Below, piece after piece: positions 11,145 to 20,554 of a DNA stretch of 24,000 bases. Position numbers and translations under genes: made by a program. Under the pieces are notes generated by a model that worked only from the letters and a program-made list of their open reading frames with translations, did no database searches and was not told where the DNA came from. Every line of letters starts with the position of its first letter. Position 1 is the first letter of the stretch. The stretch is from Litchfieldia salsa (lineage in GTDB: Bacteria > Bacillota > Bacilli > Bacillales > Bacillaceae_L), in assembly GCF_900104555.1 (NCBI RefSeq), contig NZ_FNJU01000011.1, forward strand, positions 126,540 to 150,539, written 5' to 3'.

Positions 11145-13046
11145 TCAAGCCCTTTTTTGTTTCTTAGGTATTAATCGTCTAACACGACTTTTGACTTCAT
11201 CTGTTGTTAGATTGATTTCTTCTAGCAGTTCATTCACATTACCATGTTCAATGAATTGATCTGGTATGCCCATACGTTCAATTACAGTGTGATGATATCC
11301 TTGGTCATGTGCAAATTCTAGCACAGCACTACCAAATCCTCCTTGAAGGATCGCTTCTTCAATTGTTAAAACAGGCACTTCTGATGAAAATAACTCATGA
11401 AGCATTGCTTCATCCATAGGCTTGATAAACCTAGCATTTATTACTTTGACTGATAAATCCTCAGTCTGTAACATTTCAGCTGCCTCTAAAGCCATCGGTA
11501 TGGTTGTCCCAAATGTAAGAATGATCAAATCCTTACCTTCCTTAAGCACTTCCCATGAGCCTATTGGCAGTTCCTTTAACTCTTCATCCATTTTAACACC
11601 AAGCCCATTCCCACGCGGATAGCGAATAGCAATTGGACCACCATCATACTTAACAGCCGTGTTTACCATATGTTGTCCTTCATTTTCATCCTTTGGCATC
11701 ATCAGCACTAAATTTGGCATATGGCGTAGGAAAGCAATATCAAAAACCCCTTGGTGGGTTTCACCATCTGCTCCTACAAGACCAGATCGGTCTATTCCAA
11801 AGAATACGTTTAAGTTCTGTCTGCATACATCATGTAGAACTTGATCATATGCTCTTTGTAGAAATGTTGAATAAATAGCTAGAAATGGCTTCATATTCTG
11901 AGTTGCTAAACCAGCCGCCATTGTCGTTGCATGCTGCTCTGCAATTCCTACATCATACATTCTTTCTGGGAACTCCTTAGCAAAGTTCTCCAGTTTTGAA
12001 CCAACCGGCATAGCCGGAGTTATCGCAACGATACGTTCGTCCTCTCTTGCTAACCTACGAACTGTTTCACTAATTAGTGAACTCCATGCAGGAGCAACAT
12101 TAACAGGCTTTACAAAATCTCCAGTTTCGATTTTGTATGCTCCTGTACCATGCCAAGTTCCAACGGTATCAATTTCTGCAGGTTGATAGCCTTTTCCTTT
12201 TTTTGTTATTACATGTAATAACACAGGTCCTTTTGTTTTCTTGGCATATTGCAGATTTTCAATCAAATCCTCATAGCTATGACCATCAACAGGTCCCAGA
12301 TACGTAAAACCAAGTTCCTCAAAGAATACACCTGAAACAAGCAGATATTTTAGGCTATCCTTCACTCGTTCTGCAGTACTAGCTAACTTACCTCCAACAG
12401 CAGGAATTCTTTTAAGTAAATATTCAAGCTCATCTTTTACCCAATGATACTTACCAGCAGTTCTAAGTTTCCCAAGAACATTGTGAAGTGCACCAACATT
12501 TGGTGCAATTGACATCTCATTATCATTAAGAATCACAATCATATCTTTTCTTTCATGACCTATATGGTTAAGCGCCTCTAAAGCCATTCCGCCTGTTAAA
12601 GCTCCATCACCAATAATAGGTACGATAAACTCCCCACTCTTTTTGAGGTCTCTTGCAACGACCATACCCATAGCAGCAGATAAGCTAGTTGAACTATGAC
12701 CCGTTTCCCAAACATCATGTTCGCTTTCAATTCTTTTCGGGAAGCCACAAAGTCCTTTATACTGACGAAGTGAATCAAATTCAGATGCCCGACCAGTAAG
12801 AATTTTGTGCACATAAGATTGATGACCAACATCCCATATAAATTTGTCTTTCGGGCTACTAAATTCTTTATGAAGAGCTATTGTTAGTTCTACCACCCCA
12901 AGGTTAGGTCCTATATGACCACCCGTTACAGATAATTTTTCTATTAAGAATGTTCTTATCTCTTCACTTAGTAAATCTAATTCTTCATATGACATGTCCT
13001 TCAAAAAAGCCGGACTTTTTATTGCAGTTAGATCCAAGAGGACCAC
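11145..13046 (-). CDS. dxs: 1-deoxy-D-xylulose-5-phosphate synthase
   Basis: The ORF is 633 aa. It has [14 protein letters not shown] and the thiamine-diphosphate motif [15 protein letters not shown]. The GTG start at 13046 abuts the oapA stop. An in-frame TTG at 13037 is an alternative start. Confidence 0.95.
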
Positions 13047-13664
13047 TCACTTTCGCTTCGAATTTCTCTTTTTCTTTTTATCCTTTATTAACACTATATT
13101 AAACTTATCTTCAATAAAATGGAAGATGCGTCCTACCTGAAAGATAATCTCTGTCGATGATCTTATTGCAATCGATTTTCCAAGTGCTTTTCCACCAACT
13201 GTTAAAGCAGCCACCAAACTAGTAAAGACTACCGAAACGACATAATGAAAGACAGAACCATCTGTATAGTTATATGTAACAGTTAACTCTAAGACGACAA
13301 TCGCTGTTGCAGTCCCACTTATTATCCCAGATATATCACCAATTACATCATTACAGAAGCTGGCAAACCGATCTGCATTCCTTACAATGTGTATTGCACT
13401 CTTTGAACCATTCACTTTTTTAGATGCCATTGCATGAAAAGGTATTTCATCTGCAGCCGTGGCGGCGATGCCAAGCATGTCAAAAAAGATACCGATAAAA
13501 ACAATGATGAAAACGACAATTGTACCAATTGCCCAGGTTAACCCAGATAATGCATAGGTAGAGACAATAGTAAAAATAGCCGCTAACACAAAAGTGATAA
13601 CGGCAATACCCAAACTCCAGTTTATTGATTCACGTATATGTTGTTTCATAATGTATTCACACAT
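13047..13664 (-). CDS. oapA: OLE-associated membrane protein A-like: four-TM protein with a Lys/Arg-rich C-terminal tail
   Basis: The ORF is 205 aa. Four hydrophobic segments begin at about WSLGIAVITFVLAAIF, TWAIGTIVVFIIVFIGIFF, ISGIISGTATAIVVLELTV and FHYVVSVVFTSLVAALTV. The tail is KDKKKKRNSKRK. The gene lies immediately downstream of the large structured RNA and upstream of dxs. B. subtilis has no counterpart at this position. The start could be 13664 or 13649. Confidence 0.75.
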   Translation of the reverse strand: MCEYIMKQHIRESINWSLGIAVITFVLAAIFTIVSTYALSGLTWAIGTIVVFIIVFIGIFFDMLGIAATAADEIPFHAMASKKVNGSKSAIHIVRNADRFASFCNDVIGDISGIISGTATAIVVLELTVTYNYTDGSVFHYVVSVVFTSLVAALTVGGKALGKSIAIRSSTEIIFQVGRIFHFIEDKFNIVLIKDKKKKRNSKRK

Positions 13665-13684
13665 CCATCCGTTTTAAAGCAATA

Positions 13685-14299
13685 CCTATGTATAATAGGT
13701 GGTCATATGAAAAGTAAATTTTACGGCTTAGGTCCAGTAGGATTTCCCAAATAAGTACCAAGTGTTGCCACAATGGCGGTTTCCCATTAAACCTATCTTA
13801 GCACCGTCACCGAATGCTAGACTGGATTACCACTTAGTCCGTACTGCAATCCTATTCATATGTCCATTTAGAACAGCCTAGGAGTTTTCCTCAAACAGTC
13901 CTTAACCATTTCCTAGCCTCTTTTGCAGAGTTAATTTCATATGGGCTAACCTTTGACTCATATATCAATGGCCAACTGATGTATGAATCTCGAACCATAA
14001 TCCCCTTAACTCCACTCAAGGCAGGCTACGCTGTTTGAATCTCAACTACCAAAAACGAGACCAACACAGGTTCATACCCCATCCCATAGGATGAAATTCC
14101 TACATAAATGGGCCTCCACGGAAGCAGGGTCAACGCCCACATGCCATTGTGGATCGCCCTGCAACCTTAACCCCCAGCATCAACCCAAGGCTGGGCGCCT
14201 CAAGCCAACGCCAGGGACTTCATCGATGTGCCCTTTGACGGATTTTTAGGCCCGTCTTCAGAAACGGAGGACTGACTAGAATACTGCACCACCCAATTT
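13685..14299 (-). ncRNA. ole: OLE (ornate, large, extremophilic) RNA; boundaries approximate
   Basis: No ORF of 60 aa or more exists in any frame across 13665-14360. G+C is 59% (71/120) over 14101-14220 by hand count, against AT-rich flanks. There are many hairpins (plus-strand coordinates): CCACA/TGTGG at 14137-14152, CCGT/ACGG at 14252-14267, CATCC/GGATG at 14080-14093 and CCTAT/ATAGG at 13685-13699. The interrupted long-range helix pairs 13981-13996 with 14069-14077. The length is about 610 nt. The context ispA | RNA | 4-TM protein | dxs | tlyA matches the published OLE locus as I remember it. Confidence 0.8.
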
Positions 14300-14305
14300 A
14301 TAGTT

Positions 14306-14334
14306 ATTATATCATATTTTCATGTTTTCCTCAA
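14306..14334 (-). promoter_or_regulatory. Candidate sigma-A promoter with extended -10 directly upstream of OLE
   Basis: The minus strand has TTGAGG (14334..14329), a 17-nt spacer and TATAAT (14311..14306), preceded by TG at 14314..14313 (TGATATAAT). Confidence 0.45.
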
Positions 14335-14360
14335 TCTGAAGCCCTTACTAACATAATTGC

Positions 14361-15254
14361 TTAATTTTGTCTCGATCCAACCAATTGGCACAAATACTCT
14401 AGAATCTCTGATTCTATCCCAATTTCTTTTATAGTTGTCATCGCTTGATCTATGTGATATTCAAGCTTTGCTTTAGCTCCACTCATCGTCAATAATGAGG
14501 GATATGTATTTTTATGATTTGTAGCATCACTTCCAACTGGCTTACCAATGGCTTCTTCAGAACCTTCAATATCAAGTATGTCATCTCTAATCTGAAACGC
14601 TAAACCAAGATGGAGTGCAAAACTTTCCAACATTTCGAGTTTTTCGGCTGAAGCATTTGCCATAATTCCTCCTGCCATAATACTATATGCCAGTAATTTA
14701 CCTGTCTTATGCTTATGTATATACTCAAGTTCAGGAAGAGTTAATGCTTGTCCTTCTCCCTCAATATCAGCAACTTGACCACCAACCATCCCTTCTGCAC
14801 CTGCTGCTTTAGCTAGTTCTGTAATTAACTTTAGCTTAGTACTAGGAGGAACTAACTCTTCATTCATGTCAGCGATTAGTTGAAAGCTGTAAGTTAACAA
14901 ACCATCCCCCGCCAAAATGGCATTAGCTTCTCCGAAAATAATATGGTTTGTTGGTTTACCTCTCCGTAAATTATCATTATCCATGCTTGGTAGATCATCA
15001 TGAATAAGAGAATACGTATGAATCATTTCAATTGCACAAGCAACTGGCAAACCCATCTCCTCTTCTTTATTAAAGGCCTTTAAAGTTGATAGAAGTAGAA
15101 GTGGTCTTATACGCTTTCCCCCTGCTTCAAGGGAATAGTTCATTGCATCTTTTAGTATACTAGGTGCTTGAAGGTGATCTATATACAATGGCAATACTTG
15201 TTCAATTTTTTGCTTTTGCGAAGACAAATAGTGTGTAATATCATGTACAAGCAC
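14361..15254 (-). CDS. ispA: Farnesyl diphosphate synthase (polyprenyl synthetase)
   Basis: The ORF is 297 aa with a GTG start after an AGGAGGA RBS. The first Asp-rich motif is LIHDDLPSMDNDNLRRG and the second is FQIRDDILD. Confidence 0.93.
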   Translation of the reverse strand: MLVHDITHYLSSQKQKIEQVLPLYIDHLQAPSILKDAMNYSLEAGGKRIRPLLLLSTLKAFNKEEEMGLPVACAIEMIHTYSLIHDDLPSMDNDNLRRGKPTNHIIFGEANAILAGDGLLTYSFQLIADMNEELVPPSTKLKLITELAKAAGAEGMVGGQVADIEGEGQALTLPELEYIHKHKTGKLLAYSIMAGGIMANASAEKLEMLESFALHLGLAFQIRDDILDIEGSEEAIGKPVGSDATNHKNTYPSLLTMSGAKAKLEYHIDQAMTTIKEIGIESEILEYLCQLVGSRQN

Positions 15255-15255
15255 C

Positions 15256-15489
15256 CTATTCTTCCTCCTGAATTGAGAATGGCTCTAGCTTTCCATCTTC
15301 TTTTAAGATTTGATCCATTTGTTTCTCAACATTTTGTAGTTTATCATGACAAAGCTTAGACAACTTCATACCCTCTTGGAAGTAATTAATCGCTTGTTCT
15401 AAAGGAACATCTCCTTCTTCCAACTTTGATACAATTCCTTCAAGTTTCTTCATGGCTTCTTCAAAAGATATAGCTTGCTCTTCACTCAT
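15256..15489 (-). CDS. xseB: Exodeoxyribonuclease VII small subunit
   Basis: The ORF is 77 aa and includes [35 protein letters not shown]. It overlaps the xseA stop by 8 nt. Confidence 0.93.
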
Positions 15490-16843: not shown

Positions 16844-16899
16844 GTTACCCTCCCTTAACACGATATATCGTATTTACCTAGTTATACAGTATGATACAA

Positions 16900-17289: not shown

Positions 17290-17365
17290 TCGTTTGTTCT
17301 CCTTTTACTTCGACAATTATTTTATCTACATCATAGCATATTTTTCATGTGCAATAAAATAGGAC

Positions 17366-17452
17366 ACAAAAAAAGCAAAATGCCAGTCATTAATTCAACC
17401 CTCAATACTGTCTTACGAAAAGTATTGAGGGTTTGAATAGTGACAGGCATTT
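17366..17452 (-). terminator. Unusually long-stemmed rho-independent terminator downstream of the Asp23-family gene
   Basis: The inverted repeat pairs 17378-17409 with 17421-17452. It has an 11-bp perfect core (CCCTCAATACT/AGTATTGAGGG) plus about 19 further pairs with bulges. On the minus strand it is followed by TTTTGCTTTTTTT. Confidence 0.65.
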
Positions 17453-17483
17453 CATGCTTATATCATCTTATGGTTATACCATT

Positions 17484-20001: not shown

Positions 20002-20129
20002 TATAATTAAAGCGTTTTCATTGGTTGATATTTGTTATTTGTGCTTTTTCTGTAGGTTCAAATCCCTAATTTAATAATTCATTCGGTATAACAAAGAATT
20101 GAGTTCGGTGTGTTGTTTATCACGGTTGC

Positions 20130-20412
20130 TTTTGTCCGATCGCGAGACCTCTTATTAGACAAATCCTTTGCTGGCACCGTTCGTTTTGTCCGATAGAGAC
20201 CTCTTATTAGACAAAACCTTTGCTGGCGCCGTTCGTTTTGTCCGATAGAGACCTCTTATTGGACAAAACCTTTGCTGGCACCGTTCGTTTTGTCCGATAG
20301 AGACCTCTTATTGGACAAATCCTTTGCTGGCGCCGTTCGTTTTGTCCGATAGAGACCGCTTATTGGACAAACCCTTTGCTGGCACCGTTCGTTTTGTCCG
20401 ATAGAGACCTCC
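20130..20412. repeat. Tandem array of a 52-bp unit, 5 full copies plus 1 partial, each carrying a 33-nt imperfect palindrome
   Basis: Unit starts are at 20130, 20184, 20236, 20288, 20340 and 20392. The consensus is TTTTGTCCGATAGAGACCTCTTATTGGACAAAACCTTTGCTGGCRCCGTTCG. The first copy is 54 bp (CGCGAG instead of AGAG). Only 1-3 substitutions separate the copies. Confidence 0.95.
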
Positions 20413-20554
20413 TACAAACAAGGCCTATATGCTTTCACAGTCCGATTTGTGTTTTTTAACTCTTATTTCACGATTTGCAACAAAAATATATAACAAAGTC
20501 TTTATAGAACAAGAGCGCACCCATGATTTGGATACGCCCTACGTTGTTGATCAA

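Follow-up and report, generated by a model that had tools for sequence, protein, structure and literature searches.

Which element occupies the spacer between ispA and the gene of a small membrane protein in Litchfieldia salsa? The question was raised by a stretch of 24,000 nt from this halophilic species (contig NZ_FNJU01000011.1; hereafter the window), in which the ispA stop codon (14361) and the start of the longest downstream open reading frame (ORF; 13664) enclose a spacer of 696 nt (13665-14360). The initial annotation had proposed that the minus strand of this spacer encodes an OLE RNA, and that the following ORF encodes its membrane partner OapA, in a layout known from the literature. 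OLE RNAs are bacterial, membrane-bound and roughly 600 nt long. Our analysis, whose scope was the sequence of the 24-kb window together with related loci, supports this proposal. We estimate a probability of about 96% that the region is the standard ole-oapA locus of a halophilic member of the Bacillaceae. The host lineage (Bacillaceae, Bacillota) fits the known hosts of OLE RNA, which are Bacillota and typically extremophiles or anaerobes.

A full-length OLE RNA is encoded between ispA and oapA

An ORF scan of the spacer 13665-14360 found no reading frame of at least 60 aa, as had been stated before, and the length of 696 nt was confirmed. The sole ORF of at least 50 aa, an antisense frame of 52 aa (14091-14249), was considered as a gene and rejected. 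The G+C content over 14101-14220, given initially as 59%, was computed as 59.2%, compared with 45.2% over the Rfam OLE match described below and 36.9% in the whole window. Folding of the minus strand of the spacer yielded a minimum free energy (MFE) of -215.8 kcal/mol (z = -4.23) that was equalled by none of 20 shuffled sequences, in line with the hairpin-rich strand noted in the initial annotation.

The whole window was scanned against Rfam 15. The covariance model of the OLE family (RF01071; curated gathering threshold 50 bits) matched the minus strand from 14308 to 13683 with 520.3 bits and an E-value of 3.8e-150. The match covered model positions 1-616 of 616 and was not truncated. OLE was the sole Rfam match in the window at the curated threshold, and no real match to other RNA families, including riboswitches and GOLLD, ROOL and raiA, was obtained in the whole-window search at E-values up to 0.5. 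When the Rfam consensus was mapped onto the window, 155 of the 159 pairs were present and 147 of these 155 (95%) were canonical. The complete helix set consists of 19 Rfam helices plus P1, P2, P3 and P3.1, which are left unpaired in the Rfam model and were added by hand; all 27 pairs of these hand-added helices are canonical. The core closed by P1 extends from 14295 to 13696 and comprises 600 nt. Even the unconstrained MFE fold yielded P1, P3/P3.1, P4, P5, P6, P7, P8 and P9.

RNA structure and gene order are conserved in related loci

An alignment of 16 OapA homologues served as profile for a scan of one genome per species. The related loci are the best 80 of 545 confirmed relatives, all of them Bacillaceae in the broad sense. 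Halalkalibacterium (Bacillus) halodurans is not among these best 80, and a published OapA sequence was used for comparison. In all 80 loci an OLE homologue was located directly upstream of the OapA gene on the same strand (nhmmer with the window RNA, E-values from 1e-73 to 1e-162). The 11 most distant loci scored 457-518 bits with the Rfam OLE model and were all full length. The order accC-asp23-nusB-xseA-xseB-ispA-OLE-oapA-dxs-tlyA-argR-recN was complete in 62 loci. In the remaining loci the same order was cut by contig ends or one gene fell below the search threshold; it was never rearranged. The arrangement in the window is the published OLE/OapA layout, which the initial annotation had recognized.

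Superposition of the Rfam structure on the 80-sequence alignment left 88.9% of the cells paired, as compared with 39-46% when the partners were slid by 1-3 columns. Compensatory changes affecting both sides were detected in 111 of 155 pairs, and the observed values were not attained in any of 500 shuffles. About 230 columns of the alignment are invariant. The near-invariant unpaired blocks (L4, J4a/5, L5.1, L6.1, the L9 GGCC and J12/J14) are all present in the window, and counts for the conserved motifs ranged from 72 to 78 of the 80 sequences. In two loci (L056 and L059), the distal end of P9 with its GGCC kissing loop is missing (alignment columns ~375-420), yet these loci score 507-518 bits. 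Loss of this loop would remove one of the four published dimer contacts.

The downstream ORF matches OapA

The ORF oapA (13047-13649, minus strand) begins 33 nt downstream of the end of the Rfam OLE match, and no terminator-like site was found between ole and oapA. Its product had been described as a protein of 205 aa, which is the length of the longest ORF from 13664. The ORF was confirmed but the length was not: in each of the 15 aligned homologues translation begins at the second ATG (13649), so the protein most likely comprises 200 aa. Over 189 aa it shares 54% identity and 77% positives (E 2e-66) with the OapA given in Supplementary Table 4 of Kretsch et al. 2025, which substantiates the proposed homology. 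The sequence of Kretsch et al. is closest to Halalkalibacter loci, an expected result for the protein of H. halodurans. In public databases the window protein is identical (100%) to a 'hypothetical protein' of Litchfieldia salsa. For its homologues, the names in use are 'hypothetical protein', 'CBS domain containing-hemolysin-like protein', 'Mg2+/Co2+ transporter CorB' and 'CNNM transmembrane domain-containing protein'. The name OapA does not appear among them, and no NCBIfam model for the OapA family was found.

The initial annotation had described a protein with four transmembrane segments and a KDKKKKRNSKRK tail. Four hydropathy peaks were indeed observed (residues 13-31, 44-62, 102-124 and 133-151), and the tail is present as the lysine-rich end of a C-terminal region (156-200) with 13 K+R versus 4 D+E, giving a net charge of +9. 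The short outer loops 1 and 3 are neutral or acidic. One trait given for OapA is the absence of the proline that is conserved in CNNM domains; the window protein has a single proline (P70). The DxxxD motif, a distinctive feature of OapA (PMC11332333), is formed by D101-VIG-D105, both aspartates being invariant in alignments of 16 and 94 sequences.

CNNM was the sole Pfam match, with an E-value of 3.3e-4 and 20.8 bits, which is under the cut-off of 28.4. The Pfam search of the ORF found neither CBS nor CorC_HlyC domains. Likewise, 13 of the 16 homologues gave a below-cut-off CNNM match only. OapA proteins scoring just below true CNNM proteins have been described by Fernando and Breaker (PMC11332333). 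An AlphaFold model based on the 16-sequence alignment had a mean predicted local distance difference test (pLDDT) score of 60 and was set aside. The 94-sequence alignment resulted in a mean pLDDT of 77 and a predicted template modelling (TM) score (pTM) of 0.65, with long predicted helices at residues 2-34, 39-65, 92-125 and 133-163 (AlphaFold2). In the Foldseek comparison with the PDB, membrane domains of CNNM/CorB/CorC proteins took the first four places (7M1T chains A and B, 7CFG and 7CFF); probabilities were 0.8-1.0, TM-scores 0.41-0.52 and E-values weak (0.035-1.2). No other match exceeded a probability of 0.2. PDB sequence searches with the protein and with the 16-sequence profile returned only chance matches to spike proteins; they found no OapA structure, and CorB was undetectable by sequence. 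On the basis of its sequence, we identify the 200-aa protein as OapA. The lack of a CBS or CorC domain and the CNNM score below threshold argue that it is not an MpfA/CorB transporter.

A dedicated promoter is predicted upstream of the RNA

A putative ole promoter is located at 14306-14334 on the minus strand. It consists of the -35 hexamer TTGAGG, a 17-nt spacer and a TG-extended -10 hexamer TATAAT ending at 14306. With 10 of 12 matches plus the TG, it is the best sigma-70-like site in 12900-15400, which puts the predicted transcription start near 14299 and 3-5 nt ahead of P1. Upstream of P1, 51 of 78 loci had an equivalent site with a score of at least 10/12, versus 1 of 234 control windows in the ispA coding sequence. 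The TG extension was kept in 73 of the 78 loci. These features characterize a dedicated, conserved promoter of the predicted sigma-A type in the ispA-ole spacer, placed to start the RNA before P1. The B. halodurans OLE RNA is made from its own proximal promoter with a more than 100-fold effect, and its 5' ends map beside P1, with some read-through from upstream genes (PMC3413148). The window promoter matches this experimentally active ole promoter. Very high abundance and stability are further traits of OLE RNA as a class.

These results refine the initial view of an RNA inside the xseAB-ispA-dxs operon. The position holds, and the RNA appears to have its own promoter rather than mere operon membership. 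The RNA ends proposed at about 14299 and 13685 agree with the limits of the Rfam match and with the end of the -10 hexamer.

Architecture of the window OLE RNA

All elements described in this section are located on the minus strand. P1 closes the whole RNA. Its 5' strand UGGGUGGU (14288-14295) forms 8 canonical pairs with ACCACCUA (13696-13703); across the 80 sequences 94.5% of the P1 cells are paired and 6 of 8 pairs show compensatory changes. The hand-added helix P2 is formed by UAGUC and GGCUG (14278-14274 with 13878-13874). As its pairs never vary across the 80 sequences, covariation neither supports nor contradicts P2. The following helix P3 + P3.1, which has been proposed to cross the membrane (PMC12265935), is built from the 5' strand AGUCCUCCGUUUCU (14260-14273) and nucleotides 13897-13913, giving 14 canonical bp with a 3-nt UUA bulge. 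Duplexes calculated separately for each sequence with RNAduplex contained 11-14 bp (median 14) and a bulge of ~3 nt in 80 of 80 homologues. P3.1 is paired in 86.6% of cells with 7 of 8 pairs compensatory, and P3 in 55.6% in the MAFFT columns. Since the individual duplexes reach 11-14 bp everywhere, the low value for P3 is an alignment artefact of the 3' bulge.

Two palindromes flank P3/P3.1 and have been described as partial OapA sites (PMC12265935). By analogy, the palindrome CUAG in the P2 region (14276-14279) and the palindrome AUCGAU (14227-14222), both of them invariant, are candidate OapA contacts 1 and 2 in the window. AUCGAU is part of the P4a/J4a-5 block AAAGGGCACAUCGAUGAAG (14218-14236), which also contains the 5' half of the putative OapC kink-turn (k-turn), consisting of C84, the loop GAU and then G-A. 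OapC binds a k-turn beside P5 (PMC9723947), and CAUCGAUGAAG together with UUAAGG across P5 matches this published region, suggesting an equivalent site here. CAUCGAUGAAG is identical in 72 of 80 sequences and its columns are invariant.

The contacts that join two OLE RNAs in cryo-electron microscopy (cryo-EM) structures are an A-A bridge of L4, the L5.1/L6.1 loops and the L9 GGCC kissing loop (PMC12265935, PMC12286853). Counterparts of all of them were found in the window. The P4 hairpin (14237-14256) has 99.8% of its cells paired, shows compensatory changes in 5 of 6 pairs and carries the loop L4 CUAAAAAU (14250-14243), which is present in 77 of 80 sequences and corresponds to the A-A bridge. 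The P5/P5.1 hairpin (14171-14217) has 20 bp, all 20 canonical, and is 96.7% paired across the alignment; its loop L5.1 GCCCA lies within a CGCCCAG motif found in 78 of 80 sequences. Judged by the published dimers, L5.1 would form a loop-loop contact with L6.1, which reads AAUGGCAU in the window. The long arm P9 (13916-14022) ends in the loop L9 UUGGCCA with the palindromic GGCC, whose core is conserved. The distal part of this arm is 8 nt longer than in the Rfam consensus.

The bS21 of H. halodurans binds to a mimic of the anti-Shine-Dalgarno (anti-SD) sequence in P6 (PMC12054373), and the corresponding region of the window RNA is P6/P6.1 (14120-14166). The window RNA has kept the GGG:CCC core, the only invariant part of P6 among the 80 loci. 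The CCUCCU anti-SD mimic is absent from the window OLE, its place in the 3' shoulder being taken by CCCUGCUUC, and CCUCC occurs in the P6 3' shoulder of only 3 of 80 loci (sequence CCCUCCUAC). We conclude that the anti-SD mimic is a feature of the model species and not family-defining. P7 (14112-14078) and P8 (14069-14031) are variable stems, which are 9 nt shorter and 11 nt longer, respectively, than the Rfam consensus; neither their length nor their sequence is constant in the alignment.

OapB binding depends on the GNRA loop and the bulge of P13, and a weak second site is provided by P14.1 (PMC7936274). In the window, the P13 hairpin (13799-13819) has GUGA as its tetraloop and a bulge consisting of a single U. 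Within this loop, the G and A are invariant in the 80 sequences, and 95.4% of the P13 cells are paired. The P14.1 hairpin (13757-13777) carries a GCAA loop, which is also of the GNRA type. The presence of P7, P8, P9 and the OapB site classifies the window RNA as a 'full-length' OLE and not as variant 1 or 2 (PMC11332333).

A UACAUA box (13687-13692) was detected just 3' of P1. In the window it is part of a short hairpin (CCUAU/AUAGG) competing with the four outermost pairs of P1. TACAT was found in the P1-oapA spacer of 70 of 76 related loci, usually within ~15 nt of P1. The box might be a 3'-end or processing signal; it could set the 3' end of OLE or couple OLE maturation to oapA-dxs expression. 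A broader proposal is that the OLE particle of most Bacillaceae, the present host among them, differs from that of H. halodurans, with bS21 not being recruited via an anti-SD mimic and with the UACAUA box acting as an undescribed signal. We regard this as rather unlikely.

Genes and other features of the window

The gene order given in the initial annotation agreed with the Pfam and NCBIfam assignments, which identified xseA, xseB, ispA (FPP synthase), the spacer, the membrane ORF, dxs, an FtsJ/S4 methyltransferase (tlyA-like), argR and recN. Farther neighbours in the window are spoIVB, spo0A, nusB, asp23/yqhY, accBC and the spoIIIA genes. The oapA stop codon TGA (13049-13047) abuts the GTG (13046) that opens the dxs reading frame, suggesting translational coupling. 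The true dxs start could instead be a TTG at 13037, as an alignment with B. subtilis Dxs suggests. The gap between nusB and xseA measures only 38 nt (16862-16899), so that no folD lies between them; in B. subtilis, folD is located between these two genes.

The gap between asp23/yqhY and nusB (17290-17483, minus strand) contains a long, very stable hairpin (z = -5.3) followed by seven U residues. From its sequence, it looks like an intrinsic terminator at the end of the accB-accC-asp23 unit. An Rfam match of this hairpin to MIR169_2 (E 0.13) was rejected as a weak chance match to a terminator-like structure.

Unrelated to OLE, a tandem array is located at 20130-20411 (maybe 20092-20466) in a 771-nt ORF-free gap between accB and spoIIIAH. 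It consists of 5.4 copies of a 52-nt unit with 94% matches and no indels. Read on the minus strand, the unit is GGTCTCTATCGGACAAAACGAACGGTGCCAGCAAAGGTTTTGTCCAATAAGA. In each copy, the arms of a perfect inverted repeat of 9 bp (GGACAAAAC/GTTTTGTCC) enclose a loop of 17 nt, and the array can accordingly be drawn as a row of identical hairpins. The whole-window Rfam search gave no match to it.

Discussion

All these results identify the spacer as an OLE RNA gene and its downstream neighbour as oapA, and nothing in the analysis speaks against this identity. How the particle might work can be proposed from published systems. Two OLE RNAs would dimerise via the A-rich L4 loops, the L5.1/L6.1 contacts and the L9 GGCC kissing loop. 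In the literature, OapA dimers bind OLE and bring the RNA to the membrane, and OapB and OapC are required (PMC12265935). In the window, OapA is expected to be a four-helix, CNNM-like membrane protein. Its dimers would bind the palindromes flanking P3/P3.1 and hold the RNA at the membrane, probably aided by a basic cytoplasmic face, while OapB at the P13 GNRA loop and bulge and OapC at the k-turn beside P5, whose genes would lie outside the window, would complete the particle. On this basis we tentatively suggest, at slightly below even odds, that OapA is a divalent-cation (Mg2+ or Mn2+) transport module with the OLE dimer as its regulatory or sensor domain. The dimer would then stand in place of the CBS-pair and CorC domains of MpfA/CorB. 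Ion- and partner-driven changes in RNA shape might tune ion flux and the responses to cold, alcohols, excess Mg2+ and poor carbon. Several points weigh against this proposal. Transport activity has, to our knowledge, been shown for no OapA, and we are aware of no report that resolves the biochemical function of OLE RNA. OapA resembles CNNM only weakly, as judged from 20.8 versus 28.4 bits, Foldseek E-values of 0.035-1.2 and a monomer model with a mean pLDDT of 77. Moreover, as P6 has no perfect anti-SD mimic, the partner set may differ from that of H. halodurans.

Other accounts accept the RNA and the protein for what they are and assign them different tasks. OLE RNA could mainly be a scaffold or signalling hub ('bTOR') that gathers ArgR, bS21, OapB, OapC and others at the membrane next to a non-transporting OapA. 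Several protein partners have been mapped (PMC7936274, PMC9723947, PMC12054373), knock-outs show broad stress phenotypes, with sensitivity to cold, alcohols, Mg2+ and poor carbon sources (PMC12265935), and argR and asp23/yqhY belong to the same conserved cluster, here and in 62 of 80 loci. The hub would leave unexplained, however, the CNNM-like fold and the invariant intramembrane DxxxD of OapA, as well as the anticorrelation of OLE with the Mg2+ transporter MpfA (PMC11332333). We consider it possible but somewhat improbable. The RNA might also be a ribozyme whose reaction, as yet unknown, takes place at the membrane and for which OapA is the anchor only. This idea is favoured by the discoverers of OLE RNA (PMC11332333, PMC12265935), and the size of the RNA, its ~20 covarying helices and its many invariant unpaired nucleotides do resemble large ribozymes. 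On the other hand, nearly 20 years have passed without a report of catalytic activity, and the conserved L4, L5.1, L6.1 and L9 are accounted for by the cryo-EM dimer contacts. A Northern blot revealed a single product (PMC3413148), which makes self-splicing unlikely. A catalytic role therefore appears quite unlikely to us.

Readings that deny the identity itself fare far worse than the transport-module proposal and its competitors. An autonomous, truncated Mg2+ transporter of the CNNM/MpfA type that has nothing to do with the RNA would agree with CNNM as the sole Pfam match, with the CorB/CorC domains at the top of the fold comparison and with the database labels 'CBS domain containing-hemolysin-like protein' and 'CorB' of some homologues. 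It is rejected as highly improbable in view of the sub-threshold CNNM score without CBS or CorC_HlyC domains, the 54% identity to published OapA and the OLE RNA directly upstream in 80 of 80 loci. The spacer could finally be seen as an ordinary cis-regulatory leader (riboswitch or attenuator) of oapA-dxs, or as a functionless OLE remnant, given that it lies upstream of both genes on the same strand with no terminator-like site in between. This view has practically no chance of being correct. It is refuted by the full-length covariance match with 147 of 155 pairs intact, by covariation and by the lack of any riboswitch family match even at E 0.5. In addition, no conserved block is missing, a conserved promoter of its own is predicted for the RNA and the Rfam score equals that of 11 relatives.

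As the initial annotation had also pointed out, the system is not new. Publications already cover OLE RNA and OapA, the adjacency of the two, the gene neighbourhood as well as the proximal promoter. The locus is an ordinary one, whose OLE copy would be flagged by any Rfam-based annotation. One supplement of Fernando and Breaker 2024 does not mention Litchfieldia. The value of the present analysis is a clean, confirmed annotation of a locus whose protein is publicly still 'hypothetical' or mislabelled 'CBS domain hemolysin-like'. The comparison of 80 genomes contributes small additions, namely OLE-OapA linkage in 80 of 80 loci, a conserved extended -10 region, a steady P3/P3.1 length of 11-14 bp, the confinement of the anti-SD mimic to few loci and the conservation of the UACAUA box 3' of P1. 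The question of OLE chemistry is not made more testable by the window locus.

Comparison with known systems

Like OLE, the RNAs GOLLD, ROOL and raiA are large, non-coding and highly structured; they assemble into homo-oligomers, and their chemistry is unknown. They differ in having unrelated sequences and folds and no membrane protein partner. Among proteins, the closest resemblance is to the CNNM-family Mg2+ transporters MpfA, CorB and CorC, whose CNNM domain is similar to the modelled membrane fold of OapA. In contrast to these transporters, OapA has four instead of three membrane helices, contains neither a CBS pair nor CorC_HlyC, carries the DxxxD motif and always occurs together with OLE RNA. 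OapA does not belong to their family.

The OLE RNAs of Clostridium acetobutylicum and C. botulinum, for which cryo-EM dimers were published in 2025, share with the window sequence all four dimer-contact elements (the A-rich L4 loop, L5.1, L6.1 and the L9 GGCC palindrome) and the P3 helix flanked by two palindromes. They belong to the Clostridia and not to the Bacilli, and the lengths of the variable stems differ. By analogy with these structures, the window RNA would dimerise as well.

The closest counterpart with experimental data is the OLE RNA of H. halodurans C-125 (ole, BH2780). Both RNAs are full-length members of one Rfam family and of the 'full-length' type with P7, P8 and P9, and have in common the GUGA tetraloop and bulged U of P13 as OapB site and the k-turn block beside P5. 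The proximal promoter predicted in the window would, like that of the model species, start transcription beside P1. In both loci oapA follows immediately downstream within an ispA, dxs, tlyA, argR and recN neighbourhood, and the window protein is of the same OapA type, with 54% identity to the published sequence, DxxxD, four helices and a basic tail. Unlike the model RNA with its bS21-binding CCUCCU mimic (PMC12054373), the window RNA has CCCUGCUUC in the 3' shoulder of P6. Its P7 is shorter, and P8 and the distal P9 contain insertions. P3 + P3.1 comprises 14 bp, where the literature gives 'typically 12'. The host, a halophile, belongs to another genus. Altogether, the differences from the model species are small.

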